A stretch of DNA of 64,000 bases from Bdellovibrionota bacterium (lineage in GTDB: Bacteria > Bdellovibrionota > UBA1018 > CAIPTA01 > JAALKR01). The notes under the pieces are model-generated. The model was not told the origin of the DNA. It was given only the letters and a program-made list of their open reading frames with translations, and did no database searches. Made by a program: the position numbers and the translations under genes. This document shows positions 8,454 to 26,362 of the stretch, one piece after another. Position 1 is the first letter of the stretch. Each line of letters begins with the position of its first letter. The stretch lies in NCBI GenBank assembly GCA_965207455.1, contig CBDBMJ010000001.1, forward strand, positions 1,811,043 through 1,875,042, read 5' to 3'.

Positions 8454-9241
8454 TCGACCCCCAAACCATCATCCAAATCGCCTTCATCACCTTTGGTTTC
8501 ATCATCGGCAGCTTCCTCAACGTCTGCATCTCCCGCATGCCCAAAGAAAAAAGCGTGGTCTTCCCCCCCAGCGCCTGCATGACTTGCCAAAAAAACATCC
8601 CTTGGTACTGCAACATCCCCATTCTCAGCTACCTCTTCCTCCGCGGCCGCTGCCTCTACTGCAAATCCCGCATCCCCTTCCGCTACCTGCTAGTCGAATG
8701 CATCACCCCCGCCCTATTCCTCCTCTGCCTGCCCTACCCCTATATCCTCTGGCCCTTTTACGTTTACTTTCTCTCCTCCCTCGTCATTGCCACCTTTATC
8801 GACCTCGAACACTGGATCATCCCCGACAAGATCACCCTCCCAGGTATCCCCATAGGAATCCTAAGCTCCCTCGTCCACCCCTACCCTTTTATTTTGGATT
8901 CTGTGCTTGGCATGATATTTGGTGGCGGATCTCTCCTAGTCATTGGCATGATCTACGAGAAGATGAAAAAAACAGAGGGCATTGGTGGTGGCGACATAAA
9001 ATTTCTCGCCATGGGCGGCGCCTTCCTCGGCTTCAAAGGCATCATCCTCACGCTTCTTATTGCTTCCATCACTGGCATGATTATTGGACTCATCACCATG
9101 ATCAAAACAGGAAAAGGCGGCAAAACTGCCATCCCCTTCGGTCCCTTCCTCTCCGCTGGAATGCTCATCACCTTTATCTGGGGCACCCAAATCTGGGACT
9201 GGTACCTCGCCCTCACCAACCCTCAATCCCTCTTCCAATAA
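8450..9241 (+). CDS. pilD: Prepilin peptidase / N-methyltransferase, copy 1
   Basis: GSFLNV, two CxxC pairs, IDLEH and GGGDIK catalytic Asp motifs, IPFGPFL. Confidence 0.95.
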   Translation: MIDPQTIIQIAFITFGFIIGSFLNVCISRMPKEKSVVFPPSACMTCQKNIPWYCNIPILSYLFLRGRCLYCKSRIPFRYLLVECITPALFLLCLPYPYILWPFYVYFLSSLVIATFIDLEHWIIPDKITLPGIPIGILSSLVHPYPFILDSVLGMIFGGGSLLVIGMIYEKMKKTEGIGGGDIKFLAMGGAFLGFKGIILTLLIASITGMIIGLITMIKTGKGGKTAIPFGPFLSAGMLITFIWGTQIWDWYLALTNPQSLFQ

Positions 9242-9294
9242 CACACCCAACAAACCCACGGCGCAATGCCGCACGCAACAAGCTGGACACGTCA

Positions 9295-10731
9295 TTAAAA
9301 TTTTCTAGAAAATTTCCTAAACGATTTAACCAGCTCATAAGTAAGAAACGCGTTTGCTACTATCTGCAAAAAATTCCAGAAACCAAACTCACCTACAGGC
9401 AATTTAATGGGAATCACTAAACGACCAAACAGGTCAAGACAATCCCAAAAACCAACACAACACTCAAAACGAAACATATGGATAAAAAGAAATACAATAT
9501 TAATAGCTAATTGCCAAACAAAAACCCTAAAAAAAGCTGTACCAAAATAACTAAAGAGCTTCTCAATAGATAAAGTAAATTTATCCTGAAGATTGCCACC
9601 CGTCTTCCCCAGTTCATGGAGATATTTATCATGCTCTTTCGTATGAAACATCACGGCAGATATCGTATCATTTTGTTTTATGGCGAAGTGCTTTAATTGC
9701 AAGAAAGTTTCTCTGCTAAATGCATTCTCGCCTTCAATATTTATTAATCCTCTTTTTTCGTTTATATATTTAAGTGTGTTTTCTTCATCAAGAGATTCAT
9801 TCCCTCCAGTAGAAAAATCCGTTCCTTCGATAACGCAATTATCTATCTGAAGTACAAATTCTTTAGTAAAAAAAATATCTCCTAAAAAAATATTTTTTAT
9901 ATTTCCCGACAACTTAAAATGACTCCTAAAAAAAGAAAGGGTGAAATCCAATCGCTCACGAAACTCACTCATTGTAGTGTCTAATTTATTAAAAATACAT
10001 TCCCTGAAATTACAAGACCCGAGGAATTGCGTATTAAAAAATCTTGCATCATCTCGAAAATAAGATTTATAAAATCCAGCATTTTCTGCAAATCTTGTTC
10101 TCTCAAAAGAAACTTTCGATAAAAATATAGTCTCAACAAAATCTACTTCTTTTTCAAACTCTACCTTTTTAAAAAAAGAATCTCCTGTAATAATAGTATT
10201 ACTAACGCTCACTGGTTTCAGAAATTTTTTATCAGACAAATAAATGCCACCTATAATAATGAAATTATCAAAACATACCTTTCTTGAAATTTTCGCACTA
10301 TCCAATATAATATCTCCCACAATAATGCAATTATCTAAAGGCACATCCATTGAAATAAGTTCTTCAACATCAGACTGTCCTATATGAACGAATTTTTTCT
10401 TAGAATCTAGCTCTTCTTCCATGATAATAAATATTTTTTCAGAAAGGATTCCTTTATAATTAAAAATTTCTTTTATATGTGCGCTTATTTCAATCACCTC
10501 ATATTCAACACCATTAAAAACTACTTCTTGCGAGTTCAAGGAAGGATCGGAATACTTGTTTTTACTCTCATCTTCATAACGAAACTCTAACTTACCACTC
10601 GATTTATCAAAAGTAACATTGGTTAATCCCTCTCTATCAACCTTTGATATTCCGTATTTTACCTCGCTCGTTTCTTGTTCCATAAAATATATCTTACAAA
10701 ATACTATTGTAAAAAACAATTCTTTATTCAT
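9295..10731 (-). CDS. Pentapeptide-repeat protein with C-terminal TM region
   Basis: Periodic F-xx-x-F repeats (FKKVEFEKEVDFVETIFLSKVSFERTRF...); hydrophobic C-terminus; start may be MEQET at 10683. Confidence 0.75.
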   Translation of the reverse strand: MNKELFFTIVFCKIYFMEQETSEVKYGISKVDREGLTNVTFDKSSGKLEFRYEDESKNKYSDPSLNSQEVVFNGVEYEVIEISAHIKEIFNYKGILSEKIFIIMEEELDSKKKFVHIGQSDVEELISMDVPLDNCIIVGDIILDSAKISRKVCFDNFIIIGGIYLSDKKFLKPVSVSNTIITGDSFFKKVEFEKEVDFVETIFLSKVSFERTRFAENAGFYKSYFRDDARFFNTQFLGSCNFRECIFNKLDTTMSEFRERLDFTLSFFRSHFKLSGNIKNIFLGDIFFTKEFVLQIDNCVIEGTDFSTGGNESLDEENTLKYINEKRGLINIEGENAFSRETFLQLKHFAIKQNDTISAVMFHTKEHDKYLHELGKTGGNLQDKFTLSIEKLFSYFGTAFFRVFVWQLAINIVFLFIHMFRFECCVGFWDCLDLFGRLVIPIKLPVGEFGFWNFLQIVANAFLTYELVKSFRKFSRKF

Positions 10732-10796
10732 CTATCACCTTAAAAAAAGAGTAAGTGTTTCTCACAAAGAAACCATTAAGTTCTTGGAAAACTAAA

Positions 10797-10985
10797 TATC
10801 TATTGTCCGATTATCAGACATCGCACCAACAGGAACACGCCCCAGAGCAGACCTCATAATCCCTCCAGCAACAAAGCCTACCTCTATTCACACCTCTCAC
10901 AACACACAGACAAACCTCGGAACTCTTCTTGACTAACCCATGGCTTTGGTTTATGTTAAAACATAATCAATCGGCTAATTAACAG
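10797..10985 (+). repeat. Repeated ~190-bp element A (palindrome, C/A-rich spacer, sigma70 promoter)
   Basis: Alignable by eye along its length with 20889-21078; partial copies at 13410 and 19244. Confidence 0.8.
10929..10957 (+). promoter_or_regulatory. Sigma70-type promoter
   Basis: TTGACT-N17-TATGTT; TTGACT is also kept in the second copy at 21021. Confidence 0.65.
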
Positions 10986-11010
10986 AAGGCGTAAGAGAGG
11001 GAACTGAAGA

Positions 11011-11181
11011 ATGAGAAAAAAAAATAACAGCGCAACGAAAAAAGAAGACCCTGAAGAAGTTCAGAGAAGCCTTGAACAGCTCATTATTGACATAAAAAAG
11101 AAGCGACCCAAGTTCCGAAAATTCTCAAAAGAGCAGCGAGAATTCTTTATAAGGGAAGCACTAGAAGAGTATGATTCGTAG
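11011..11181 (+). CDS. 56-aa small protein not in the ORF track; RHH/CopG-like C-terminal helix
   Basis: MRKKNNSATKKEDPEEVQRSLEQLIIDIKKKRPKFRKFSKEQREFFIREALEEYDS; GAGG RBS; homologous relic at 19132-19236. Confidence 0.65.
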   Translation: MRKKNNSATKKEDPEEVQRSLEQLIIDIKKKRPKFRKFSKEQREFFIREALEEYDS

Positions 11182-11189
11182 TACCCATT

Positions 11190-12059
11190 GTGTTAGCAAG
11201 TAAATTAAAAAGAAATAAGAAATACAGTCTTTCTCAAGGAATGATCTTTGAGATACCCAGTTTAAAACTTGATTTTGATAAAGCAAAAAAAACCATTAAA
11301 GAGCTTTATCCCGAGGCAAGTCTTGATAATGTAAAGTATGGACTCATATTAACACAATCATGTGACCTCGTTCATGATAAGTTTTTTGAGCAACAAGGTG
11401 GAACTCTAGATAAAGATGAAAAAAATAACTACAAATATCGACTTCCAAAAATTCCTCACATTACATTTTGCTTGTTGGAGCCAATAAATTCTTATATTTC
11501 AGAATTTTTAAGTAAAAACGAATCAAAATTTCTATTCAAAATAGAAGACCCTGTTCCCACTAACAAAACCACTAATGTCCTTTCCTCGAGCAAAGCATTA
11601 AAACTAGTTTTGAGAGAATTTGGCAGGTTCTTTCAAAATAATCACCCTTGGGCATTTTTCATCACAATTCAATCAAAGGATAGAAAAGAATACTACTTTG
11701 TTAACTTAACAAAAATTCTCCCTCTAAGAATAATTCACTATAGCTCAATCCTCCAGAACTCTAAATTTCAGTTAACAAATGAATTTTCTAATAAATTAGC
11801 ATGGAAATTGGCGACCCTATATGGGAGAATCGGGACTAAGGATTATTCAAGAAAAGCAATCACAGAAATCATCAAGGATATTCTTGAAATCTCCCAAAAA
11901 GAGTTTTCTAGCTTAACCGATGATTCTATAGACATAGAACCTTTAGACTTTGATGCTCTTAAAAAAAATCTAGAAAGAGAACGTAACTTAAAAAAAAGAA
12001 ATGAAATCTTACAAGATCTGCTAGAGGAACACTCCATAACAAATATGAAAGGCATATAA
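11190..12059 (+). CDS. Hypothetical protein with LTQSCDL motif (289 aa)
   Basis: LSQGMIF...GLILTQSCDL...LATLYGRIG pattern; AT-rich. Confidence 0.7.
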   Translation: MLASKLKRNKKYSLSQGMIFEIPSLKLDFDKAKKTIKELYPEASLDNVKYGLILTQSCDLVHDKFFEQQGGTLDKDEKNNYKYRLPKIPHITFCLLEPINSYISEFLSKNESKFLFKIEDPVPTNKTTNVLSSSKALKLVLREFGRFFQNNHPWAFFITIQSKDRKEYYFVNLTKILPLRIIHYSSILQNSKFQLTNEFSNKLAWKLATLYGRIGTKDYSRKAITEIIKDILEISQKEFSSLTDDSIDIEPLDFDALKKNLERERNLKKRNEILQDLLEEHSITNMKGI

Positions 12060-12092
12060 GACCGAAGAACTCATACACTACATTTTTCGGCT

Positions 12093-12606
12093 CATCTACA
12101 CCATTCTCGCCAAACCCGTCCACCGCTCCCAATACATTCTGGGCAAATACCTCGGCTGTAGCCTCGTTGTCCTCATCGCTCACCTAATAATGTCCCTCTC
12201 CCTCCTAACCGTCATCTGGATCATCGGCATAAAAACCTCCACCGGCCTCTACCCCTGCTTCTACCTCATGACACTCGAAAGCCTTCTTATACTCTCCATT
12301 GCCCTGTTCTCCTCTATCTTTTCCTCCAGCGTCCTCGCCACTTGCCTCACCCTTCTACTATTCCTCATCGGAAGAAGCGCCTACTTCTTTCACTCCGCCT
12401 CTGAAAAAGCCGAAGGATTCATGCGCTATGTTTTTCGGATTCTCTACGACATTCTCCCTAACCTCGAACGCTTTAATCTCCGAGAAATGGCGGCCAAACC
12501 CTACCCCGACACCCTTCTCCTCGACAGCACCATCTACGCCCTCGCCTACACCACCCTCTTTCTCACCCTAAGCACCATTCTTTTCATCCGACGGGACATG
12601 CCATGA
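12093..12606 (+). pseudogene. pilI: 5'-truncated copy of the pilI permease
   Basis: Lacks the first ~260 bp of 7674-8453; MAAYSKPY becomes MAAKPY. Confidence 0.85.
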
Positions 12607-13394
12607 TCGACCCCCAAACCATCATCCAAATCGCCTTCATCACCTTTGGTTTCATCATCGGCAGCTTCCTCAACGTCTGCATCTCCCGCATGCCCAAAGA
12701 AAAAAGCGTGGTCTTCCCCCCCAGCGCCTGCATGACTTGCCAAAAAAACATCCCTTGGTACTGCAACATCCCCATTCTCAGCTACCTCTTCCTCCGCGGC
12801 CGCTGCCTCTACTGCAAATCCCGCATCCCCTTCCGCTACCTGCTAGTCGAATGCATCACCCCCGCCCTATTCCTCCTCTGCCTGCCCTACCCCTATATCC
12901 TCTGGCCCTTTTACGTTTACTTTCTCTCCTCCCTCGTCATTGCCACCTTTATCGACCTCGAACACTGGATCATCCCCGACAAGATCACCCTCCCAGGTAT
13001 CCCCATAGGAATCCTAAGCTCCCTCGTCCACCCCTACCCTTTTATTTTGGATTCTGTGCTTGGCATGATATTTGGTGGCGGATCTCTCCTAGTCATTGGC
13101 ATGATCTACGAGAAGATGAAAAAAACAGAGGGCATTGGTGGTGGCGACATAAAATTTCTTGCCATGGGCGGCGCCTTCCTCGGCTTCAAAGGCATCATCC
13201 TCACGCTTCTTATTGCTTCCATCACTGGCATGATTATTGGGCTCATCACCATGGTCAAAACAGGAAAAGGTGCCAAGACTGCCATCCCCTTCGGTCCCTT
13301 CCTCTCCGCTGGAATGCTCATCACCTTTATCTGGGGCACCCAAATCTGGGACTGGTACCTTGCCCTCACCAACCCTCAATCCCTCTTCCAATAA
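12603..13394 (+). CDS. pilD: Prepilin peptidase, copy 2 (intact)
   Basis: 263 aa; differs from copy 1 at two residues (MIKTGKGG vs MVKTGKGA). Confidence 0.93.
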   Translation: MIDPQTIIQIAFITFGFIIGSFLNVCISRMPKEKSVVFPPSACMTCQKNIPWYCNIPILSYLFLRGRCLYCKSRIPFRYLLVECITPALFLLCLPYPYILWPFYVYFLSSLVIATFIDLEHWIIPDKITLPGIPIGILSSLVHPYPFILDSVLGMIFGGGSLLVIGMIYEKMKKTEGIGGGDIKFLAMGGAFLGFKGIILTLLIASITGMIIGLITMVKTGKGAKTAIPFGPFLSAGMLITFIWGTQIWDWYLALTNPQSLFQ

Positions 13395-13606
13395 CACTCA
13401 AAACACCCTTGTCCGATTTTCAAACATCGCACTAACAAACACCCCTCCCAAAGCAAACCTCACAATATTCACACAGCTCAACACAGCAGGTACCAATATT
13501 GCTAGCAGCACGTCTCCTTATATTTTGATATAATTTCATTATGCCGTGGTCATCCGTAAAACAATTTGCTATAAACGTTTTAGTGTATAAATTTACAGGA
13601 TAAACA

Positions 13607-14389
13607 ATGCAAAGCAAACTGGTAAAAAAATGTAAAAACTCAAACCTAATTGAGGCATCGCTGACTCTTCTTGGAGAACCCAAAAAATACCAAAAAGATT
13701 CCCACCTTGGATTCAGGGAACATATTAAAAAATACCTGAGAGAGGAAAATAACTTATCCAACTTAAAATCAGAACGCATCAATAGTGCTCGCCTAACCAG
13801 AGAAGACGAAAACGGAATGGTCCTACCCTATTTAGACAGGCAGTTTACTATAAAAGAGAAAAACAAAACTTACCGAACAGGCCACCAAATCGCAGGATTC
13901 CATACAACTCACGAAGGCGATAATAACCGATACACAACTTATGACAGTGAAATCGCCCCGTATATAGAAAGTTTTATAGAAAAAATAAACGAATTCAACA
14001 ACCGATTTAATGTTATAGAAATGGTTTTCTGCTATGTAAATAATTTTCTATTCCCTCGGAATGGCTTTATGCTGGACAAATATTTTGACCTTGCCATTAG
14101 AACAGGGATCGGCTCACAACATGGAGTCCAAGAGACCTTGTTCTCTTTTTTATATCCTCTGGATGGAAACACCGTGAAAATATCACTCCGCGGATACCCC
14201 CATGATAAGGATCAAATTCGTATCGTAGTTGAAACAACTGGTATAAAAAAGATTGAACCCACATCCATTTCCGATTACAGGAAAATAATGGAGGAATCTA
14301 AAATCCTAAAGGATATAACAAAAGCTCAATTTTTCAACCTTACCAGCGACGAAACAAAACATAAAATACTAGGAGCAAAATATGAGTAA
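13607..14389 (+). CDS. TIGR04255-like protein
   Basis: LIEASLTL near the N-terminus, central CYVNNF (RYIN-like), C-terminal FFNLTSDE; family call from recalled pattern. Confidence 0.5.
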   Translation: MQSKLVKKCKNSNLIEASLTLLGEPKKYQKDSHLGFREHIKKYLREENNLSNLKSERINSARLTREDENGMVLPYLDRQFTIKEKNKTYRTGHQIAGFHTTHEGDNNRYTTYDSEIAPYIESFIEKINEFNNRFNVIEMVFCYVNNFLFPRNGFMLDKYFDLAIRTGIGSQHGVQETLFSFLYPLDGNTVKISLRGYPHDKDQIRIVVETTGIKKIEPTSISDYRKIMEESKILKDITKAQFFNLTSDETKHKILGAKYE

Positions 14390-14879
14390 TCCCATCACAG
14401 CCGAACCAATGCTCCTTCCAAAAACAATTCATAGTGATGCGAAAGGCAACATTAAAGACGACAGCTACTTCTATAGCGAAGCAGACCTCCCCACCCTTCT
14501 CTCTCAACCACTACAGGAGCAAAATTCTCTTTCTGAATCTCCCGAAGCAATTAAAAAATCTGTACGGGATTTTTCTTTTGACACAGAAAAAAACAATCCT
14601 GTAACCATCACATCTTCCGTAGTTGGAAAATGGAATAATTACGAAGAACTCTCTGATTTATTGGCAGGGATTAATTATAATGAATTTTGCAAGCGAGCCA
14701 CTACCAGTGAAATGTACTGGAAACCAATCATTGAAGAACGCCTGGAAGAACTGTATCCAGAAAATATGTCTGAAGAATTAAAGAAACTAAAAAGTATAAA
14801 TAGAGCAACACGAGATATATTAGAGAAAATCAAAAAAGGAACCAAGAGAAATTTTTTTAGAAAAATTTTTCGCAAATAG
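14382..14879 (+). CDS. Hypothetical protein (165 aa)
   Basis: Overlaps the upstream gene; GGAG RBS; operon-like spacing. Confidence 0.65.
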   Translation: MSNPITAEPMLLPKTIHSDAKGNIKDDSYFYSEADLPTLLSQPLQEQNSLSESPEAIKKSVRDFSFDTEKNNPVTITSSVVGKWNNYEELSDLLAGINYNEFCKRATTSEMYWKPIIEERLEELYPENMSEELKKLKSINRATRDILEKIKKGTKRNFFRKIFRK

Positions 14880-14894
14880 AGACTACTGAAGTAA

Positions 14895-15581
14895 ATGGCA
14901 ACGTTAAACTGTGGAGAAAATAAGTCTCCAGCATCTCATTACAGAAATCACATATCAGATTTAAATATTCTTTTCTTCAAAAAATTTTGCGCATACTGCT
15001 GGACAGCCGATAAGGCAGAAACTATTGATCACTATAAGCCAAGGAAACATTTTCCCAATCTTAAAACTGAATTCAGAAATTTACTTCTTGTCTGTGCCAC
15101 GTGCAATTCAAAAAAAGGAGATTATCACCCCGAAGCAAAAAACAGAAAAATATATAAGGACGAAACGCATTACATATTCAATTGTCGCGAGCATGATATA
15201 GGAGAATTTATAAAAGTAAGCAACGATGGGAAGATCTCATCCAAGAAAAATTTACGGAAAGAACGAGAACAAGTTGCTTTTTTTATTCGGATATTTAATC
15301 TAGAAAAAACAGAAACGAAAAGTACAAGAAAGGAACACATAGAAATATTAGAAGCAACAAAAGAAGCGATGCAGTTGTTAAAAAATAGAGCTCGCTGTGA
15401 GAATAAGGCAAGCCTTGAACGGATTTTAGATACAAATATTGGGCTTATTGCTACCAGATTTTTATTCTTTCACCTTTTAAATTTAAAAATACCAAGCGAG
15501 TTAAAGGAAAGAATAGAAAAAAAGAGAAGAGAACTTCTATGCGCACAAAGACTAAACCCAATTATCTCAAAATTGATTTAG
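14895..15581 (+). CDS. HNH endonuclease
   Basis: CAYC...TIDHYKP...NLLLVCATCNSKKG Zn-finger HNH motif. Confidence 0.88.
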   Translation: MATLNCGENKSPASHYRNHISDLNILFFKKFCAYCWTADKAETIDHYKPRKHFPNLKTEFRNLLLVCATCNSKKGDYHPEAKNRKIYKDETHYIFNCREHDIGEFIKVSNDGKISSKKNLRKEREQVAFFIRIFNLEKTETKSTRKEHIEILEATKEAMQLLKNRARCENKASLERILDTNIGLIATRFLFFHLLNLKIPSELKERIEKKRRELLCAQRLNPIISKLI

Positions 15582-15693
15582 AAACTATTTGCAAGCTTAT
15601 CGATGTTGTTGTAATATCAAAGAAGGCTGGATGAAATGCAAACATTATTTTAAACTAGGAATAAACCCTAATTACTTCGGAGGAACGCGATGA
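15575..15693 (+). pseudogene. Relic 3' end of the proteasome-beta-like gene
   Basis: DLETICKLIDVVVISKKAG...KHYFK...NPNYFGG matches the end of 19371-20588. Confidence 0.8.
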
Positions 15694-15887
15694 CTGAAAC
15701 TAAAAAGACAGAAGAAAAGATACACAGACCATCCAAGGAGCATACCGTTGTAGATGATTCTGAGATAACTTTTGAAAAAGACCCCTACAAATACGGACAG
15801 AAAATAGGAAGAATAGCAGTGAGGGAAGCCTATATAAAAACTTTGAGAAAATTTCGTGATGCTAAAAAACTTCAAGCAAAGTCATAA
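15690..15887 (+). CDS. Small protein, paralogue of 20585-20824
   Basis: FEKDPYKYGQKIG vs FHDDPYEYGRQMA; same TTCGGAGGAA RBS context. Confidence 0.7.
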   Translation: MTETKKTEEKIHRPSKEHTVVDDSEITFEKDPYKYGQKIGRIAVREAYIKTLRKFRDAKKLQAKS

Positions 15888-15926
15888 GATGCACTCTCAC
15901 CAAACCTTAAACATGTGTAAATAATT

Positions 15927-16511
15927 ATGCTAAGATTCCCCTGGAAAAAAACCACCATGTTCTCCAAAGATCATTCGTCGAAACACCTCGACGAGATCCA
16001 ACTCCGCAACCGAAAAAACATCCTGAAAGTCGCAGCCATCCTCAGCCTCCTCCTACTCCTCTACCCCGTAATAAAAGAAAAAAGCTACCTCTTCTCCATC
16101 CAAAACCAAGCCCGCACCCTAACCAAAGAAATCCTAAACGCCAGACTCCAAGCCACCAAAACCCGCAACCCAACTTCCCTCACACTCCTCAACCCACAAA
16201 CATGGCAATACAACGAATTCCCACAAAAACACGACTGCGACGGAACACCCAACCCCAACACAAAAAAAAACCTCCCCTTCCCCGACTTCCAATGGCGCGC
16301 CCTCCTCCTCAAATCCAATAACCCCACCGGCATCGGCTCAGACATCCAACAACTCTGCTTCCACCCCATCCACGGCATCACCCTCAACAACCAAAATCTC
16401 TCCTCCCACCAACTCTTCCTACTCGTCTCACCACAAGAAAACACCAAACGACAAAACATCCAACAAATCATCCTCTCCAACTCCGGCATCCAAATCCAAC
16501 CCCTCCAATAA
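15927..16511 (+). CDS. Pseudopilin/FimT-like protein without a canonical prepilin cleavage site
   Basis: One TM helix then ARTLTKEILNARLQA and LCFHPIHG, FimT/GspH-like; same C/A-rich codon use as the pil genes. Confidence 0.5.
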   Translation: MLRFPWKKTTMFSKDHSSKHLDEIQLRNRKNILKVAAILSLLLLLYPVIKEKSYLFSIQNQARTLTKEILNARLQATKTRNPTSLTLLNPQTWQYNEFPQKHDCDGTPNPNTKKNLPFPDFQWRALLLKSNNPTGIGSDIQQLCFHPIHGITLNNQNLSSHQLFLLVSPQENTKRQNIQQIILSNSGIQIQPLQ

Positions 16512-16521
16512 AATAAGTATT

Positions 16522-16578
16522 TCACTGGACCTAAAAACTGTTGGCAAATCTGCTAATATTGCTGTAATATCAAAGAAA
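16522..16578 (+). pseudogene. Second relic of the proteasome-beta-like gene 3' region
   Basis: Translates SLDLKTVGKSANIAVISKK vs SPNLETICEPIDVAVISKK at 20454-20510. Confidence 0.65.
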
Positions 16579-16588
16579 AAGGAACTTA

Positions 16589-17647
16589 ATGGAATTAGAA
16601 AAACATAAGCATCTCAAAAAAAATAATATGCCAATCTCATATTTTGAAAATTATGAGATAAAAGAAATTAATATCAGCAACCTGAAATTCTTGCTAAAAA
16701 GAAGACCTCTAACATTCAAAATTCTTATACCCAAAAATAAAACCAGCCACAGAAAACGTACACTGCAAACAATATTTCAAGAAATAAATTATATGATTGA
16801 AGAAATCGCTGACAATACTATAATTGGTGTCCGTAAAGATATTTTTTTATTGGACTTTAACATAAAAAAATGCCTGCAGCAATATCAGATATACATGAAC
16901 TATCAGTTATAATTGGAATTTCTGAGGAACTCGACTGCTCTCAAACAGCAGAAAAAAAGTTCAAAACCCTCCAAGCATACACGCAGCGCTATGGCTTAAA
17001 TAAAATTAACATTTCAGAAAGCAACTTTCTAAAAAAAATATCGATTTTTAATAGAGGAGTGAATTTAGGTATTCAAATTAAAAGGAAACTGCGGCTTCAA
17101 GGGAAAGACCTAGAATGGTCCGGACTCACAAACCACAAGAAAGATAGCTCCGATATTTATTGCAATGGCCACGGAATATCTCTTAAAGACACAAGTAAAA
17201 TTATTTAACATAAGAAAAAAAATAGTCAAGGAAGTTTCTGATAAAGTCTTAGCTATCTTGAAAGAAGGACTGCTTCAAGATCCAGAACATTTCTCCCATA
17301 AAATGAAAATTATACTTCAATATGGAAATGTTAAAAAATTCTTTGGGTTCAGCAGTTCAGCAATGACTTATGTGGGATGTATAAATAAAGAAAATGATAT
17401 TCATATATCTCCTTTGAACGTATCCTCTGAGAAATCTAAACTAACTCCCACAACTGTTGGGCTGCAAATAAATTTCTACACAACAATGGATATTTCTCTT
17501 CCTTTATCTCAAATAACTATAAAAATTCAAAATCAATTGCGCTACAAGCACCGTACTTTCAGCTGCGCCCCAGAGGCAAACTTTCATTTACTAAGTTACG
17601 GCGATTGGAAGAAAATTTATCCAACTCAGGAATGTCTTGAACGATAA
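16589..17647 (+). pseudogene. Probable fragmented restriction endonuclease (three overlapping ORFs)
   Basis: ORFs 16589-16912, 16870-17208 and 17165-17647 in shifting frames; SSDI...ISLK PD-(D/E)xK-like; convergent with a C5 MTase. Confidence 0.5.
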
Positions 17648-18942
17648 AAAAGCTTAGGCCAAAGGAATTCTATTCTTTTTGCAATATGATATGCCAGCAG
17701 CGGAGGAACTGCATTTCCTATAAGCTTATATGCTTCTGATGTGCTCACTCCATTATCTCCTAAAAAGGAAAAATTATCTGGAAATGTTTGAATTCTTGCA
17801 CACTCCCTAATAGTAAGCCTACGTTCTATTAAATTCATTTTAAGGTCATTCTTACACAAGCCACCATGTTCAGACAATAGCCGTCGGAATTCTATATTCC
17901 CATGGTGCTCTGCTCGAATAGTTGGGCCAATCGTGTCGAGATTAATCTCTCTATTGCCCTGACAGTGTTTCCCATACCATTTTGCCCTTGAGTATGCTTT
18001 TTGATTAATATCACTTGTCTGATCTGGCTCTTTCAAATCTTTAAATATTGTCCTAAGAGGTACAAAGGTTTTTAAATTTTGCAAATTAATTTTCCCCGTA
18101 GCATGTGTTTTTTTCGGCAGTGGTGAATAATTTTCAGGAATTATATCTTTAGATAGCTCCTTCATAGCTTGTGGTCGCAATGAATCTTTTCTAAACCCAA
18201 TAAAGAAAACTCGCTCTCTTGACTGAGGCACACCATATTCTGCCGAGTTCAGCAATTTTCCATCAATAACAATATACCCACCATCTCCAATATTTTTAAA
18301 ATCTTCTTGTATTATTTCTTTTACATCATGTAATGAAATCAATCCCTTAACATTCTCTGCAATAAAAATCTTGGGCTGGACAATATCAATCACCTCTCTC
18401 ATCCAAGTGTAAAGCATCCCTCGATTATCTTCATTTACATGTTTTAAATCACTGCCTTTATGACTCTTATGAGATGAAAATCCCTTTCTTTTCCCTGCAA
18501 GGGAAAAATCTTGACAAGGAAAACCACCTGTAAGTACATCCACATTATTGGGAAATAGATTTTTCTCTCCATCCCAATGCCTTTTCACCCTGTCAACAAT
18601 ACTTTCCAAATGAAAGGAGCCAACCTCATAATGCTGATTGAAGAAATTAGACCAGACCTTCCGAGCCCCTAGCCTGATATCATTGGCAAAAATTGTTTTA
18701 AATCTTGTTGGCTGAAGCCTAACTTGTGATTTTTTTGTTCTTTCCTGCACCCATTGAGCATGGATATTTTCATTTATACATGCTCGATGTACCTCAAATC
18801 CACCCTCAAACCCCAAGTCCATACCTCCACAACCACTGAAGAGACTTAAAACGTTTAAATCTTTTTCATATTTTTTTTTATTATATTCCTGACCGGATTT
18901 TCTCATCCGCAAATCATCTGATATCTTTTGAGCTTTCATCAT
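17626..18942 (-). CDS. dcm: DNA (cytosine-5) methyltransferase
   Basis: LFSGCGG, GFPCQDFS, ENVKG, PQSRERVF, RECARIQTFPD and IGNAVPP motifs. Confidence 0.95.
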   Translation of the reverse strand: MMKAQKISDDLRMRKSGQEYNKKKYEKDLNVLSLFSGCGGMDLGFEGGFEVHRACINENIHAQWVQERTKKSQVRLQPTRFKTIFANDIRLGARKVWSNFFNQHYEVGSFHLESIVDRVKRHWDGEKNLFPNNVDVLTGGFPCQDFSLAGKRKGFSSHKSHKGSDLKHVNEDNRGMLYTWMREVIDIVQPKIFIAENVKGLISLHDVKEIIQEDFKNIGDGGYIVIDGKLLNSAEYGVPQSRERVFFIGFRKDSLRPQAMKELSKDIIPENYSPLPKKTHATGKINLQNLKTFVPLRTIFKDLKEPDQTSDINQKAYSRAKWYGKHCQGNREINLDTIGPTIRAEHHGNIEFRRLLSEHGGLCKNDLKMNLIERRLTIRECARIQTFPDNFSFLGDNGVSTSEAYKLIGNAVPPLLAYHIAKRIEFLWPKLFYRSRHS

Positions 18943-19131
18943 TATAACCTATCTCTATTCCTCCACTATTACAATAATCGCTATCTTCATAACGTTCACT
19001 TAAACTAAATATCTCTCAACCAAGAAAATGCGATGCAAAACCTCCTCCTGAAAAAACCTAACCTCTCCAATAAATGCTCCTCCCATCGCCACGCATCTGA
19101 TGCACAGATCTTTCCGACTCGATGCGCTGAT

Positions 19132-19236
19132 CAACTCATTATTGATATAAAAAAGAAGCAGCCCAAGTTCCAAGAATTTTCAAAGGAATAGAAAGATTTC
19201 TTTATAGAGAAAATACTAGAAGAATATAATTCGTAG
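19132..19236 (+). pseudogene. Relic of the 56-aa small gene
   Basis: QLIIDIKKKQPKFQEFSKE*KDFFIEKILEEYNS*; internal TAG where the intact copy has CAG. Confidence 0.75.
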
Positions 19237-19290
19237 TATCTACTGTCTGATTATCAGACATCACACCAACAAAAACACTCCCCCCAGAGA
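19237..19290 (+). repeat. Partial element A with perfect palindrome TGTCTGA-TTA-TCAGACA (19244-19260)
   Basis: Direct match to 10797-10850. Confidence 0.8.
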
Positions 19291-19370
19291 ACATCTTCCG
19301 CTATCTCCAACGGCTCAAAAATTGCTTCTATAAAGTTCCAGTCAACAAATTTCATAAGAGAGGATTTTAA

Positions 19371-20588
19371 ATGACCGCAGAAGTTTCCATAATGAATAGG
19401 TCAGCAGTAGCCCTAGCCGCCGACAGTGCCATTACCACTATAGACAATAAGGTACATAAAACGGGAAGCAAGCTGTTTGCAGTAAATCATGGAATGCCCA
19501 TTGGAATTATGTTTTACGGAAGCACCACTTTACTCGGTATACCTCTAGAAACAGCTCTATCCTCATTTAGAAAACATATAGATAAAAGAAAATTTAAAAC
19601 AGTAAAAGAATGTGGAAAATCATTTATCAATTTTTTAAGTAGCAATGAAATCCTGTATCCTACTGACGTACAGAAAAAATATTATTTAGATTATCTAAAT
19701 CTTTCTATAAGAAAGCATCTAGATAATATGAATAAAGAAATTATCAGAAATATGTTTCAGGAGGAATTTAAAAAATGGAATAACGCACCCTATGTTGATG
19801 GAATGGTAGAGAACGATAAGGATAAATTACTCATAAAATATGAGATTGATTTTAGCCATATTATCGATAAGGCTTTTAAAAATCACTCTCTGAATGGCAT
19901 GCCCAAAACCGATTTATATAATTTATGCGCAAACTACGCCTGCAAAGCGATTCTCTCTGACGAATATAAAAGTGGCGTAGTGTTCTGTGGGTTTGGCGAG
20001 GAAGAAAACTACCCCAGTCTTTATGCCGTAGAGTTAGAATTAATTGTTCAAAATAAACTGAAATTTATTGTTTCCCATCAATTCAAAACTACAGATTCCG
20101 ACCCAGCTTCAATACATCCATTTGCACAGAGAGAAGCGATAATATCATTCCTCCGAGGAATTGATCCTAAGTTCTTAAATTGCATTCATGGGTATATGAT
20201 AAATATTTTTGGGACGATCGATAGTTCAATAAAAAATGAGTTTCCTGATCAAATTGACGTACAAAAAAAGCTGATGCTTTTGATTGAGCATTTAAAGCAA
20301 AAGTCTATTTCTAACATATTCAAAGAATTAGGCGCAGTAAGTGAGAAAGACTTTATCAATCCCACGATAAACGCCACAGAAACTCTATCTAAAGATGACC
20401 TAGCTCATATGGCTGAAACATTAGTGAGCCTAGCTTCTTTCAGGCAAAAAATGTCGCCGAACTTAGAAACTATTTGCGAACCTATTGATGTTGCTGTAAT
20501 ATCAAAGAAAGATGGATTTATCTGGATTAAACGAAAACATTATTTCAAGCCAGAAATGAATCCCAGTTACTTCGGAGGAATACAATGA
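19371..20588 (+). CDS. Proteasome beta-subunit/HslV-like Ntn hydrolase with large insertion (405 aa)
   Basis: After Met removal: Thr1, Asp17 (AADS), Lys33 (SKLF); C-terminal PIDVAVISK; GAGG RBS. Confidence 0.75.
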   Translation: MTAEVSIMNRSAVALAADSAITTIDNKVHKTGSKLFAVNHGMPIGIMFYGSTTLLGIPLETALSSFRKHIDKRKFKTVKECGKSFINFLSSNEILYPTDVQKKYYLDYLNLSIRKHLDNMNKEIIRNMFQEEFKKWNNAPYVDGMVENDKDKLLIKYEIDFSHIIDKAFKNHSLNGMPKTDLYNLCANYACKAILSDEYKSGVVFCGFGEEENYPSLYAVELELIVQNKLKFIVSHQFKTTDSDPASIHPFAQREAIISFLRGIDPKFLNCIHGYMINIFGTIDSSIKNEFPDQIDVQKKLMLLIEHLKQKSISNIFKELGAVSEKDFINPTINATETLSKDDLAHMAETLVSLASFRQKMSPNLETICEPIDVAVISKKDGFIWIKRKHYFKPEMNPSYFGGIQ

Positions 20589-20824
20589 CTAAAAATAAGA
20601 AAAAAAAAGAAAAGGTATACACATCATACGATCAGTATCTTAGGGAATTTTTAGGTATCGATACTACTCCTAAGGTGAATTTCCACGATGACCCTTATGA
20701 GTACGGTAGGCAAATGGCAGACAGAACAATGAAAGAGGTTCTCAAAGCATTTAACGAATCTAAAAAACGCCTAGAAAAGTCATCAAGCATACAAAAATCA
20801 AAGCCAATTACTTCGAAAAAATGA
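20585..20824 (+). CDS. Small charged partner protein (79 aa)
   Basis: ATGA overlap with the upstream gene; GGAGG RBS; paralogue at 15690. Confidence 0.75.
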   Translation: MTKNKKKKEKVYTSYDQYLREFLGIDTTPKVNFHDDPYEYGRQMADRTMKEVLKAFNESKKRLEKSSSIQKSKPITSKK

Positions 20825-20888
20825 AATAACTAAAAAGAAAAGGGGCGAAGGTATAATGCTAGAAACAAATACTTCTATTAAAACCAGG

Positions 20889-21078
20889 TATCTATCGTCC
20901 GATTATCAGACATCGCACCAACAAGCGCATACCTCAGAGTAGACCTTACAATTTCCCCAGTAGCAAAAAATAACCTCTATTCACACCTTCCGCAACATGC
21001 AGATGACCTCAAGATTTCCCTTGACTAGTCCATAAGTTTAGTTTAATTATAAAGCATATTTAATCAGGTCATTAAGAG
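20889..21078 (+). repeat. Element A, second long copy
   Basis: TATCTATCGTCCGATTATCAGACATCGCACCAACA...CCTCTATTCACACC...TTGACTA, homologous to 10797-10985. Confidence 0.8.
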
Positions 21079-21300
21079 GAAAAGACAAAGGACGATAATG
21101 GAAAAAGGGAAGTACTATGGATCTCTCATAAAATGCCTTTTCTGTGTTTTTTCCTCAGTATTTGCCCTTGTAATTACAAGCATTGCATTCAAAAGTCTTA
21201 TCGGTTTCGATAAACTGGCTCTTCTAAAAAAAATCTTTTTTTATTAATAATAACGCTCTAACAGTCAAGGATTCTCCCATGAGTTTGGAAAAACTTATAG

Positions 21301-22200
21301 AATCCCAAAAAATTAGAAAGACTTCATGAGGTCATGGCAGATATGCCTTTTATTATCGATCTAACTACTGAAAGCACATTTTCAAACAAGGAAATAGACC
21401 GAATGCTTTATGCGGACAGTGACGGTTACCGCGAATAGACCGATTTCTTAAAGAGAATGCGTGAAAAGTTTAATATTATTCCAACAATAAACTACCATCC
21501 ACAAAAAGAGAAGGAAGTAGAGAAGCAAATCAATAATTTAAATATAACCTTTCCTTACCTAGCTATTCGAGTAGAAGTTTTTGAAGAAAAAACAATTGAA
21601 TATATAAAAAATATCCTCTCTTTTTGTGGTAATTTTCTCTTTAAAATAATTTTAATCTTAGATGGAAAATTTATATCTGTAAATGATGAGAAAAAGAAAA
21701 ACTCTTTTAAAACAGAAGTGCAGAAAATAGTTAAATCAACTCAAACAAATAACTATTTTCCTACTATAATATGTGCCTTCTCAAGCTTCCCAAAGTCCGT
21801 TATAGAGTATGGTGAAGATTCTGAAGGTGAATTTGAACTAATTGAACATAAAACTAATCAGGAAATTATCTCATCCCTAAATAATAATAAAATTTACCAT
21901 GGAGATTACGGCACTATCCATCCTGTTAGATATGATACCGGCGGTGGGGGATGGATTCCTAGAATTGATGTCCCACTGGATAATGAGTGCTTTTATTATC
22001 GCTATCGAAGAGATGACGGTTCTTACGCTCGTTGCGCCAAAAAAATCATGGACGATAGTAGATATAAAGCAATAGAAGATGTTAACGCCTGGGGAGACGA
22101 GGAAATTAAATATGCTGCCTGGGTGAACCTAGAGGCAGAAGCCCCTCTCACTGGATATCTGTTAGAGCTAATTTACATATGACAAGACAATACTTTAAAT
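21301..22200 (+). pseudogene. T4 beta-family protein, decayed
   Basis: YHGDYGTIHP, WIPRID motifs; in-frame TAG at 21436-21438; frameshift near 22120 before GRSPSHWISVRANLHM; 5' end missing. Confidence 0.75.
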
Positions 22201-22209
22201 TGAAAAAAC

Positions 22210-22842
22210 TCAAGCAATCTCTATCTCTTTCTTTGTAAGGATACTTATTTCTGAAAAATGAGTCTTTGGACTTCTCTCTTCCAAAAATAATTCAAATCTA
22301 TCCTGATACCTTCTTTTTAAGGCTTTTATTGCCCATTTATGCATATTTTTTTTAGTAGAACACTTTATAACTTCATTTCTTATTGAAATCATAGACTCCT
22401 TGCTATATTTCAATTTAGAGGGCATATCCTCTTTCCAAAGGAAATAACTCAAGTTACTCTTAGACGGAAGAGATTTCTTCTTGGGCTTTCGTTTTAAAAT
22501 AACCTCTTGCTTATCGGTATCAACCCAAAAGTAACCAATGTTTTTAGGTTAGCTTCTATGCTTTCCAATAAATTTTTTCGATAGTACTACATAAACTTCA
22601 TTGAATGTATCCATATAATCAGCTAACTGATCACTTAAATTAACAAGAGAATCCAACTCACTTTTTATCTCATAGGCAACCAATGAATTTTCTTTGAGCT
22701 CCACAATATCGGCCCATCTTCTGCCTCCTAAAAAAGGAACTTCGGCACATATTATATTATTAGAACCCCGACCTTCACGCAGGAGGTAATCAATGAGTGT
22801 CGCTTTAATTTTCTTTTCATTCCATGGTTGAATCATGACCAC
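22210..22842 (-). pseudogene. sce7726-family protein with one nonsense codon
   Basis: ADIV...YEIKSELDSL...QLADY...FNEVYVV; TAA at 22549-22551, frame continues PKNIGYFW... Confidence 0.8.
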
Positions 22843-22970
22843 AAAAGAGTAACATAAGTAGAGTCAAAGGAAAAAAGAAAAGAAAAAAAGAAGCAAAAAT
22901 AATAAATTACAGTGCTGCCACAATCAGAACTCTATCTCTCAGCTAGGATACTGTATGCTACAATAAAGGT

Positions 22971-23333
22971 ATGAAAACAAATACATCCGATAAAGCCCTG
23001 ATTCTCTTCCCGCAATCCACTCCCGGAAAAATCCTTCTTTTTATTTTCTATTTTCTCCTAAGTTTTCCAAGTACCTACTGCCTCGTTGCTGTCTACTTGT
23101 TCTCACAATTCAGATCAGCTGCCGCCCTTCATCCTGTGCTATCCCTGCCGCTTATTATTCTTATCCTCACCGGCCTTCCTCTCCTTTGTCTTGGGGCTAT
23201 TCGCTACGTACTCTTTAAATATAATTATCTTACCGTCAAAAGTGCTCCACAAACCTACTTCCTAGCACTCTTTGGATTCACAACCGTAGTTCATCTTATC
23301 CTAAGCATTTCACTCTACCTTTATGCAACATAG
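22971..23333 (+). CDS. Small membrane protein (about 3 TM)
   Basis: 120-aa hydrophobic ORF with upstream TACAAT and AAGG. Confidence 0.6.
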   Translation: MKTNTSDKALILFPQSTPGKILLFIFYFLLSFPSTYCLVAVYLFSQFRSAAALHPVLSLPLIILILTGLPLLCLGAIRYVLFKYNYLTVKSAPQTYFLALFGFTTVVHLILSISLYLYAT

Positions 23334-23500
23334 GAAAAGGCCGTCTAAAAAACAAGCCTCTTTTTACATGCTTTTTTAACCTTTAAGCAGGTTTTTATCC
23401 CTCTTACCCATAAATAAATTCAATATCTAAAAATACACTTAAAGGTTTCCGTATTTTAACCGTTAGGAAGTATAGATAGAATCAAGGAGGACGTTTTATC

Positions 23501-25929
23501 ATGGAAAATTTAAAAATTCTTGCAATCTCTTGCAATTCATCTTGTTGTCATGGGAAGAGTGTTGCGAGAACTGCTCGTCACACTAAGTGGCTAAATTATA
23601 AAAACTTGCTCCTCTATATAACACTTATTTTCATCACTGGCTGTAGTGACAGCCCCAACAATGGGCGACCTGCTATTCCTAGACCAATAATCACGTTAAC
23701 GGAAGAAACACTTAGTTATTCCACTAATCCCAATCCCAGTTTTTTGGTGTCCAATGTGGAAAATGGGCATACGGTAACTCTGCACACCGATAGCGCTTGT
23801 AGAAGTAAGCCGGTAGCATCCAGCACAGCTTCGAATAATACCGATGCAACTCTAGAGGATTCCAAAACAGCTTCTGAATATCTTGGCAAACCCTCTGACA
23901 ATTCCGTCAAACTCACACTCACATTTACACTTACAACCGGTTTGACCACCAATGGATATTATACCTATTACGCAAAACAAGTGAGCAGTTCAGGAAGATC
24001 TTCCCCTTGCTCCAATCCTGGTGTGGTATATGAATTTATAAATCCGCTTTCCTTTACAATAGCTGAAAGCTATTTTGAGGAGGGCATATACTACTCTAAG
24101 ATAAAAGCAGCAATTTTTAATTTCTCCAATGTGAGGCGTGGAGCAAATATAAGCCTACATAGTGAAAGTTGTAGTGGAACCTCACAGAGTACATTTTCAC
24201 AGCCAATCAACGGCGAACTAAGCATAAGACTAGCTAATCCCATCGAGACAATGAAATTTATACCTATTATGCTAGACATGCGAATGTGGATATGGACGAT
24301 CCTTTTGATTGCATAGAGATAAGCTATGCGTTGGATAGAATTGCAATTGCACCCAGCTTAGCTCTGGATAGACTTAAAAGCCTTGGCAACAATACCAACC
24401 CAGGATTTTTAGTGTCTAATCTGGAAAATGAAGCCACAGTAAGCCTACATACTGATAGTAATTGCGAGGAAGAAAGCCAAGTATCTTCTGGCACATTCTC
24501 TAGCACATCTTCCGAGGCATCTTCCGACGCACCCTCTGATAACTCCATTTTACTGAACGTTGCTCTAAGTAGTGATGGATCAAATACCTATTATGCAAAA
24601 CAAGTGGATAGATTGGGAAATTCTTCCCCTTGCAGTCCCGGTGTGAAATATAAATTAGATACAGTAATTCCCACAACACCAACAATAGCACTTGCCGATG
24701 AAAGCACCACTCCTTCTTATAATTTCAAACCCATCTTTGCTCTATCTGGCATAGAAAGTGGAGCTAGGGTAAGTCTGCATACTGATAGTGCATGCACAAG
24801 GGCAAGTCGGGTAGGTTTAAGAGTAGCTAGAGACAGCTCTATCAATTTAGAAATCCTACTCAACAATGCAGGACCAGCCACCTATTATGTAAAACAAACA
24901 GATATAGCAGGGAATTCTTCCTCATGCTCTATTTCAGGTGTGGAATATGAACTACAGTTCGATGATAATTTTGTTACCGAATGGGAATTCACCAGTTCAG
25001 ACAATCTTGAGCTCGACCTATCTGGAACACTGGATTCTATGAACCATTACTATGACTTCACTGTAAACTGGGGCGATGGAAATTCTGATCGAATTCAAAA
25101 CATAACTATCCCAATAACTATCCCAAACTTTAAACATACCTACCTCAATGTTGGACCCCACACTGTAACCCTTAGTATTGCACCTCTTGATAATGATAAT
25201 TCAAAGAGAGAAGCACCAAGTATACAGTTTGGCCCCTCTTGTACCTCGTACAATGCCAGTCTTAAAAAAGTCATCAATCTTGGAGATATGAATTGGATTA
25301 CTTTTGAAAGTATGTTTGAGAATTGTAGTGACTTAACTACTGTGGGCTTTAAGTTCGGATCGGATATTCTTGGAGTAAAATCTATGAAGAGTATGTTTAA
25401 GGGAGCAACTTCTGCTAACCCGGATGTATCCAATTGGAATCTACATAATGTAACCACTATGGAAAGCATGTTTGAGGGGGCTACTGCTGCCAACCCAGAT
25501 GTATCTAATTGGCGTGTGGCTACTGTAAGCTCTATGAAGAATATGTTTTATGAAGCAACCAGCGCTAACCCGGATGTATCCCATTGGGATGTGAGTAGTG
25601 TAACCACTATGAAGAGTATGTTTTATAGAGCAACCAGCGCTAACCCGGATGTATCCAGTTGGGTTCTAAGCGATATAACTTCTATGAAGAGTATGTTTGG
25701 CGAAGCAAGTGCTTTCTCTAGTGACAACTACAGCAATTTCTTAAAAAAGCTCGCAACAGGCTATCTAGAACTCGACCTTGACCTTGGAACATCTGTTGCA
25801 AAATACAATGCTTGCGGAAAAAAAGCGCAGGATATACTAACAACTGCGGGTTGGACTATTAACGACGGCGGATGTTTTTCTTCAGACTCGGACGATTGCT
25901 CTCCAGACAGTTGTTTGGAAAGCTTTTAG
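23501..25929 (+). pseudogene. Surface lipoprotein with Ig-like repeats and DUF285/BspA repeats, split by a frameshift
   Basis: Lipobox ITG-C; recurring V(T/S)LHTDSxC...YY(A/V)KQ...SSxCS modules; 25-aa PDVSxW...MxSMF repeats; the second frame carries IYTYYARH from about 24247. Confidence 0.75.
25380..25700 (+). repeat. 75-bp tandem coding repeats (DUF285-type)
   Basis: GATGTATC recurs at 25423, 25498, 25573 and 25648. Confidence 0.85.
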
Positions 25930-26077: not shown

Positions 26078-26242
26078 ATGAAAAATGAAAAAATGGGAAC
26101 AGTCGAAGCCCAACCAAATCGTAGAACCCAAGAGGATCGCAGGGATCCGCAGAATCGCAGAGATTCCCAAGATCGCAGGCAGCAGGGAGAACGCAGGGAT
26201 CCCCAAGATCGCCGAGGCCCACAGGATCGCAGGGATCCATAG
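26078..26242 (+). CDS. 54-aa DRR-repeat microprotein not in the ORF track
   Basis: MKNEKMGTVEAQPNRRTQEDRRDPQNRRDSQDRRQQGERRDPQDRRGPQDRRDP; AAGGAAG RBS; RR kept by four different codon pairs. Confidence 0.6.
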   Translation: MKNEKMGTVEAQPNRRTQEDRRDPQNRRDSQDRRQQGERRDPQDRRGPQDRRDP

Positions 26243-26272
26243 GATCGCAGGGATCCATAGGATCGCAGGAAT
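26117..26272 (+). repeat. 18-bp tandem repeat (about 9 units, consensus GATCGCAGGGATCCNCAG)
   Basis: Directly visible periodicity. Confidence 0.9.
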
Positions 26273-26362
26273 TAAGTTTGCCGTAGCGACCAATAGACCC
26301 TTGCGCCCTTGGATTTTTCGTCCTATCGTAGCTCATTATAGCTGAACAAAAGGAGTAAAATT

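Follow-up and report, generated by a model that had tools for sequence, protein, structure and literature searches.

What could a proteasome-like protease do that opens on its predicted catalytic threonine and is encoded together with a protein of only 79 residues? This question is raised by a locus in a 64,000-nucleotide stretch of contig CBDBMJ010000001.1 from a Bdellovibrionota bacterium (the window). The protease ORF spans positions 19371-20588 on the forward strand (405 aa, with Thr right behind the start codon). The partner ORF follows on the same strand at 20585-20824 (79 aa, two predicted helices, net charge +9), and the protease stop and the partner start overlap in ATGA. An earlier, sequence-only reading had described a protease of 405 residues; the length was correct, whereas the motif quoted as its end comprises residues 367-379 and is followed by 26 more residues. 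Purine-rich stretches resembling ribosome-binding sites were found upstream of the protease (19357-19363, forward strand) and, for the partner, within the last protease codons (20574-20578, forward strand). The latter suggests that protease and partner may be translationally coupled. Promoter-like sites were not commoner at the module than in shuffled sequences, a terminator was not found there, no Rfam family matched within 9000-23500, and no RNA data covering the region were listed.

Chance ORFs were excluded. Homologues of the protease were abundant, with 5,395 of 8,000 scored candidates at E<=0.001, and one close homologue was labelled Bdellovibrionia. The window partner scored 29.2 bits against a profile of 51 motif-selected partners from which it had been excluded, as compared to a maximum of 7.8 bits for 500 shuffles.

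The AlphaFold model of the enzyme (pLDDT 89) predicted the core fold of a beta subunit. Foldseek retrieved proteasome subunits with this model (best E 4e-5), and the best structural match was a proteasome beta subunit (Z 16.0, rmsd 3.6, 186 residues aligned, model range 1-390), followed by Anbu (Z 15.2), BPH (12.5), HslV (12.0) and connectase (9.2). Thus, the Ntn fold that had been proposed from the sequence was recovered at the level of the model. Sequence searches of the PDB gave weak matches to archaeal proteasome beta at both ends of the protein, and hhalign against archaeal beta subunits did not place the middle of the core. The inserted helical domains expected from the length of the protein were present in the model as two insertions, at about residues 92-200 (after H2) and 263-338 (between H3 and H4). 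The first comprises five modelled helices at 98-191, in a segment of 97-133 residues across the family, and the second consists of helices 266-290 and 295-337. These insertions are the least conserved parts of the enzyme (0.52 and 0.51 vs. 0.68-0.90 in the core). An insertion between S3 and S4 is absent, the region of residues 20-34 being 15-22 residues long across the family.

After removal of Met, Thr1, Asp17, Lys33 and Gly49 occupy the positions assigned to them in the sequence-only reading. Among 142 distinct loci, of which 3-6 are truncated at these positions, the triad was invariant where aligned (T 136/136, D 139/139, K 139/139), as expected for a catalytic Thr1. In all 136 intact homologues, the start codon (ATG, TTG or GTG) directly precedes Thr1, with no propeptide, and Thr1 would be exposed by Met removal. 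A propeptide is also described in PMC8665760 as generally lacking among proteasome homologues other than beta and HslV. Gly49, which that reading had set near the position of Gly47 (oxyanion hole), is weak evidence, as the column is Gly in only 97 of 142 homologues. A second set of residues, Ser129/Asp166/Ser169, was defined by Huber et al. (PMC4792962), in which Ser129 and Asp166 are reported to set the protonation of the Thr1 amine. In the family studied here, the T367 column is Thr or Ser in 142/142 and was aligned with Ser169 in a low-probability hhalign profile alignment, and E366 may stand in for Asp166. The Ser129 position, which was assigned to A252 by manual register only, is Ala in 139/142. 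Ser was likewise missing there from five connectase sequences and one Anbu-like sequence taken from genomes, whereas ten archaeal beta and two HslV-like sequences kept it. The Anbu-like sequence is one that we take to be Anbu. Thus, the family appears to lack Ser129, like Anbu and connectase. Anbu is reported to bind inhibitors and yet to be inactive on standard substrates (PMC5666114), and connectase to ligate without hydrolysis (PMC7980362). Because of the Ser129 position and the parallels with Anbu and connectase, a narrow-specificity enzyme would be likelier than a general protease.

The enzyme family itself is already known, having been catalogued by computer in 2021. The enzyme matched PHROG 5990 over its full length (E 1e-85), an entry to which no function, fold or partner is attached; five partners and the orphan partner paralogue described below had no match in PHROG. 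From its predicted architecture and its distribution, the enzyme fits PMI-4, PMI denoting 'Proteasome homolog with Multiple Insertions' (Fuchs, Alva and Lupas 2021, PMC8665760). In that paper, PMI-4 is the largest of 22 proteasome homologue families, and the architecture of PMI-3 and PMI-4 is described computationally, the former being small and narrow and the latter large and widespread. Its accessible text offers no genomic context, co-occurring gene or functional clue for the 22 families. The features in common are the proteasome-beta fold, Thr1/Asp17/Lys33, insertions after H1/H2 and between H3/H4, the absence of a propeptide and of an AAA+ partner, and the spread of a large family over many bacterial phyla, archaea and phages, as given for PMI-4 in Table 1 of PMC8665760. 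In contrast, the near-universal coupled microprotein and the mobility of the pair as cargo are not reported in the accessible text of that paper. The missing S3/S4 insertion separates the enzyme from PMI-5, PMI-6 and connectase. The published PMI-4 representative HDY66466.1 was not among the members of 10 clusters, and a literature search on PMI-4/HDY66466 found only PMC8665760.

Other known members of the clan were considered and set aside. 20S proteasome beta and HslV share the catalytic triad and are among the best structural matches, but are half as long as the enzyme and have a propeptide, an alpha ring or HslU, and Ser129/Asp166. The whole genome (2.38 Mb, 94.7% complete) contained no PF00227 subunit, Pup ligase or HslU above cut-off, and the enzyme had no PF00227 match; the canonical proteasome and HslUV were therefore rejected. 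The earlier remark that no alpha subunit, HslU or Pup genes lie nearby thus holds genome-wide, and the description as a stand-alone enzyme stood, since a conserved third gene was missing as well: the largest cluster of neighbours was found in 5 of 80 loci. Anbu (PDB 5LOY, 5NYW) shares the fold, the lack of an ATPase and, in the one Anbu-like sequence fetched, a similar Thr-Val-Gly loop before strand S10 and the missing Ser129. It differs in having no long insertions and in its operon of transglutaminase, ATP-grasp and Alpha-E genes (PMC5666114). None of these was found among the 270 ORFs neighbouring the pair, and membership was rejected on both counts. Connectase (PF09894; PDB 6ZW0) is likewise stand-alone, lacks Ser129 and has one specific protein substrate, but it lacks H1/H2, carries an S3/S4 insertion and occurs only in methanogens. 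It recognises KDPGA, a motif not carried by the partner. Since the enzyme had no PF09894 match, kept H1/H2 and lacked the S3/S4 insertion, membership was rejected here, too.

No Pfam, PADLOC or NCBIfam model matched the enzyme or the partner above cut-off, and at E<=0.1 no PADLOC model (library of 2023) was found for the enzyme, the partner or four homologues. The pair had been proposed as a candidate for an uncharacterised antiphage system, which agrees with this lack of models and not with the listing of the enzyme family as PMI-4/PHROG 5990. A search of 7,999 proteins between 817 and 2,330 aa in length gave no fusion of the enzyme at E<=1e-10, which is weak evidence and applies to this range of lengths, not to intermediate ones. 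The long C-termini of L051, L060 and L089 represent deeper overlaps and not fusions.

The partner gene accompanies the enzyme almost without exception. In a strict, deduplicated test, a coupled small ORF followed 123 of 133 homologues compared with 117 of 501 other genes; thus, the overlapping 79-aa gene pointed out in the sequence-only reading is a feature of the family. A looser test accepted any ORF of 40-120 aa starting -50 to +60 nt from the stop. It used the 80 best matches each from GTDB (564 in total) and IMG/VR (149 in total), and a small ORF was present at 77 of 78 and 71 of 75 scorable loci, respectively. Among other long ORFs, the corresponding values were 137/338 and 94/196, and 271/1,203 in the host genome. 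Seven of 162 loci were misses, six of which showed, by eye, a shorter or more deeply overlapping small ORF. Only one of the 162 enzyme loci (L033) lacked any intact small ORF. A profile of 47 partner sequences retrieved 1,186 clusters, the best 150 matches being 48-113 aa long. In distant clades, small ORFs of the same size and place did not match the partner profile, so a single partner family is unproven there. In 201 genomes of one class, the full enzyme occurred in two, both with the partner, and strong partner matches occurred nowhere else; a weak partner match was contained in a 317-aa frame, and one enzyme-like match of shorter length came without a partner match. A 297-aa frame (G265:C69:848-1678) matched both ends of the enzyme profile at a much shorter length and is possibly a related PMI type with smaller insertions.

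The predicted structure of the partner consists of a basic tail, a short helix (15-23), a loop and a long helix (37-71), and the model has no core of its own (pTM 0.40). A structure search gave no Foldseek match and no usable Atlas match, and a sub-threshold Pfam match was treated as noise. Of 18 hand-picked pairs, 14 could be computed, and all of these gave dN/dS values between 0.04 and 0.64, which indicates from the sequences that the partner is under purifying selection; five related loci contributed six of the pairs. Mean identity was 24% among partners and 43% among enzymes. The distances of enzyme and partner correlated (rho 0.53, shuffle maximum 0.31), which is what co-inheritance predicts. 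A tag protein had been offered as one role for the partner. A Pup- or ubiquitin-like tag was rejected: the partner carries no conserved C-terminal GG, GGE or GGQ, the commonest C-terminal dipeptide (11 of 149 partners) is not GG, and no Pup ligase was found in the genome. Since the partner has no conserved C-terminal motif, a role of this kind is unlikely.

Conservation within the partner is found before the second helix, where Asp (74%) and Pro (71%) form an Asp-Pro position in 149 profile-selected partners; the window partner was the only one of them without the conserved Pro. The partner might be a dedicated substrate that is either cleaved or held as a connectase-like covalent intermediate, possibly at this position, with a toxic helix being freed or transferred to another protein. 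Connectase is reported to act on an Asp-Pro bond via an amide intermediate (PMC7980362), the missing Ser129 (in the inferred register) is shared with connectase and Anbu sequences and concerns the set governing Thr1 protonation, and 5 of 89 loci, which represent three lineages, have genes of the Ubl-E2-JAB/E1 type next to the pair. However, since the Asp-Pro lies at the start of a predicted helix, it may be explained by helix capping, and it is neither invariant nor present in distant clades. Moreover, the partner has no conserved C-terminal tag, the enzyme keeps H1/H2 without the S3/S4 insertion of connectase, and ubiquitin-like genes are missing at most loci. A substrate role of this kind was considered somewhat unlikely.

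The most conserved stretch of the enzyme is W385-F392, with W385, K389, Y391 and F392 present in 142/142. The same motif was poorly predicted in the monomer (pLDDT under 50 at 390-392), which suggests an interface. Together with a partner that lacks a core of its own, this would suit a structural or assembly subunit of an ATP-independent protease serving quality control or stress response, with no role in conflict. Several modules lie in housekeeping operons, and protein degradation is the function favoured for the structurally close Anbu (Fuchs et al. 2017, PMC5666114). The patchy spread of the pair, found in none of 60 relatives searched and in only two full copies in the 201 genomes, its low GC content, its positions as prophage cargo and the decay of copies are unlike core quality-control genes. 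We regard a purely structural role as improbable.

The pair is mobile, as is apparent from its low GC content, its patchy occurrence and its carriage on prophages, satellites and plasmids. Compared with its flanks, the pair had a lower GC content at 75 of 76 and at 52 of 52 loci, and matches comprised 13 phage records, 10 plasmid records and 149 IMG/VR entries. Of the 13 phage records, six were examined. The pair formed the last genes of two streptococcal satellites; in the other phage records, it lay after the lysin, between methylase and holin, or antisense between lysis and tail genes. Among 39 viral loci, for which 75 of 194 neighbouring ORFs were scanned, an endolysin was near in 9, an integrase in 2, a repressor in 2 and a head or tail gene in 4. 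In L059 (4261-5898), the pair stands directly behind a P2-type phage replication gene A, a slot which we take to be a defence hotspot. Pairs without mobility genes were observed inside housekeeping operons, between nuoD and nuoE (L057) and between fabD and fabG (L013), as well as among CO dehydrogenase genes (L007, L011 and L032). The Ubl/E2/JAB-ThiF neighbours belong to L056 (3999-5986), L061, L063, L066 and L089 (4733-6922), and those of L056 share the strand of the protease and end 14 nt upstream of it; the labels E2, JAB and Ubl are in part our presumption.

With two coupled genes, a small charged partner, mobility, patchy occurrence and orphan small genes, the pair resembles type II toxin-antitoxin systems, some of which are toxin-first modules, e.g., HigBA and HicAB. 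It differs from them in that the partner has no recognisable DNA-binding domain and toxicity is a proposal here. We know of no toxin of the proteasome family, and none was found in literature searches. The same anatomy would be expected of a selfish addiction module whose effect is to keep its carrier (prophage, satellite or island) stable, with no part in phage defence, and insertions amid housekeeping genes without mobility genes as well as the modest enrichment of defence neighbours are in line with it. Against it speaks the repeated use of prophage and satellite cargo slots and of restriction loci, which commonly carry defence genes, and addiction without defence was judged quite improbable.

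Defence genes were enriched around the pair. Pfam analysis of the 270 nearest ORFs from 78 GTDB loci detected restriction, toxin-antitoxin or TIR genes in 12 loci and ThiF in 4 more. When PADLOC was applied to the leading 150 ORFs of this set, from 45 loci, it matched 20 of 150 neighbour ORFs vs. 8 of 132 control ORFs (p 0.047 for any match), the control being 19 stretches from the host's class that were not taxon-matched. Nearly all control matches were generic domains; when generic domains were set aside by judgement, 18 specific matches stood against 1 (p 8e-5). The enrichment is therefore real but modest. A specific PADLOC neighbour was present in 12 of 45 loci and absent from 33. The call of an antiphage candidate thus finds support in the 12 loci, but not in the several loci within housekeeping operons. 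The defence link, which is drawn from genomic context alone, is suggestive only. Literature searches, which left subscription journals mostly outside their coverage, found no paper on the partner or on a defence role of a proteasome-like pair; in two defence-prediction preprints, 'proteasome' was absent from the main text, while their supplements could list the family.

Within the window, a decayed copy of the module was found in which the protease is broken and the partner ORF survives, which is new here. It consists of a second protease remnant at 15578-15689 (forward strand; frameshifted 3' end only, tblastn E 3e-7) and, behind it, an orphan partner paralogue at 15690-15887 (forward strand; 65 aa, open frame), in which the first-helix motif is eroded and which scored 3.0 bits against the partner profile, a value equalled by 17 of 500 shuffles. 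Positions 15578-15743 are 74% identical to 20463-20638 over 176 nt (E 1e-26). A probable third remnant of the protease 3' end, more decayed, lies at 16519-16606 (forward strand); it was detected by self-blastn (72% over 90 nt, E 5e-9) and was not above shuffles in a second test. In G062, a partner frame probably survives behind a broken protease as well, the partner match there containing one TGA. If the partner were a harmless substrate, orphan copies of it would be just as likely to occur.

Overall, the pair was read as a toxin-antitoxin-like, probably anti-phage module in which a narrow-specificity threonine peptidase would be restrained by its partner (probability about 40%). The start codon directly precedes Thr1, and removal of Met would mature the enzyme; the prediction is a threonine peptidase that is ATP-independent and narrow in its specificity. 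The insertions would block canonical rings and select substrates; blocking of rings by the insertions has been argued for PMI-4 (PMC8665760). The co-translated partner (about 60 residues) would fold on the enzyme and restrain its activity, and loss or displacement of this brake would allow the enzyme to act. It might be freed by a phage signal or by a stop in synthesis, and a host or phage protein would be cut. A restrained enzyme is favoured by the near-obligate coupling together with the cargo positions, by partners that survive alone while unpartnered enzymes hardly ever do, and by a fast-drifting partner that keeps only its size and helices. The 33 of 45 loci without a specific defence neighbour and the modules inside housekeeping operons count against it. 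A brake is not strictly required, since isolated proteasome subunits that lack a propeptide are described as inactive (PMC8665760). A further-reaching version, a widespread anti-phage system in which a proteasome-family effector is held shut by the microprotein or carries it covalently on Thr1 as in connectase, infection freeing the enzyme or the tag, is put forward as a doubtful possibility.

The near-universal presence of the coupled microprotein, a candidate inhibitor or substrate, gives a direct experimental handle on PMI-4 function; in the further-reaching version, one of the 22 families of orphan homologues would gain a partner of its own. If the pair protects against phages, a threonine-protease effector would be added to bacterial immunity, and the proteasome fold would have a role in defence; a role of this kind was not found in the literature searches. 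If it conjugates, it would be the second ligase-type enzyme of the family after connectase, which is already a tool.

The AT-rich island that carries the module is located downstream of a pilin-ABC-pilD operon with a duplication of its final 1.3 kb, and GC content decreases from 0.40 in the genome to 0.36 in the island and 0.34 in the module. The duplicated segment (7934-9252 and 12093-13405; 97% over 1,319 nt) comprises all of pilD together with the end of the ABC permease gene. The two copies are followed by different cargo, which gives the island an accordion-like appearance at the pilD 3' end. A dispersed repeat of about 95 nt with a near-palindromic core and no Rfam match occurs in four copies, two of which flank the module, upstream at 19221-19315 and downstream at 20873-20967; the other copies lie at 10781-10875 and 13387-13481. 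A blastn search of the rest of the genome gave no further copy. In one contig, 13470 is joined to 19309, close to two of the copies, with a short side of only 22 letters; this is a weak hint of repeat-mediated deletion.

The neighbours of the module are a C5 methylase, an HNH nuclease, an REase-like fragment and beta- and cII/sce7726-like genes, in agreement with the defence island proposed from the sequence; the REase-, beta- and cII/sce7726-like genes are truncated or interrupted. At 16589-18942, the intact C5 methylase and three short ORFs that overlap one another face each other; the last of the three matched a type II REase weakly (E 4e-4), and together they are probably a restriction gene in pieces. 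The convergent beta-protein and cII/sce7726-like genes at 21098-22842 (PADLOC beta and cll models), truncated or stop-interrupted, represent a decayed gop-beta-cII-like locus. Three coupled genes at 13607-15581 encode a weak TIGR04255-family match, a 165-aa protein and a PtuB-like HNH nuclease, with no adjoining ATPase.

At conserved columns, none of 118 enzymes diverged more than the window enzyme (33 of 120 deviating; median 3, clade mates 24-26), which carries V368I, G369C and G370E adjoining the inferred active site. This divergence, a first insertion of 109 residues (median 126), the broken neighbours and the broken sister copies could mean that the family is functional while the window copy drifts to a pseudogene in a decaying island. 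Both frames are intact, though, and the triad is kept. Many deviations are common to clade mates, W59L occurs also in P0006, and the substituted Ile-Cys pair is also found in the older remnant; the extent of divergence is about that of the clade mates, to which a few private changes close to the active site are added. In contigs of the one run containing the region, which possibly is the source sample, no indels were found relative to the window, and module depth equalled flank depth. A drifting copy was judged highly improbable. A metagenome scan for close relatives of the window copy returned three distant loci only.

Elsewhere in the window, contig depth was 8-11 at 9268-10968 compared with 51-67 further right, so that only a fraction of the population may carry the pentapeptide-repeat gene at 9295-10731. 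Two adjacent ORFs at 23501-25929 contain a DUF285 repeat and Ig-like segments that recur, and have the appearance of a single surface-protein gene that was split. Finally, seven copies of an 18-nt tandem repeat were observed at 26118-26287, upstream of a methyltransferase gene.
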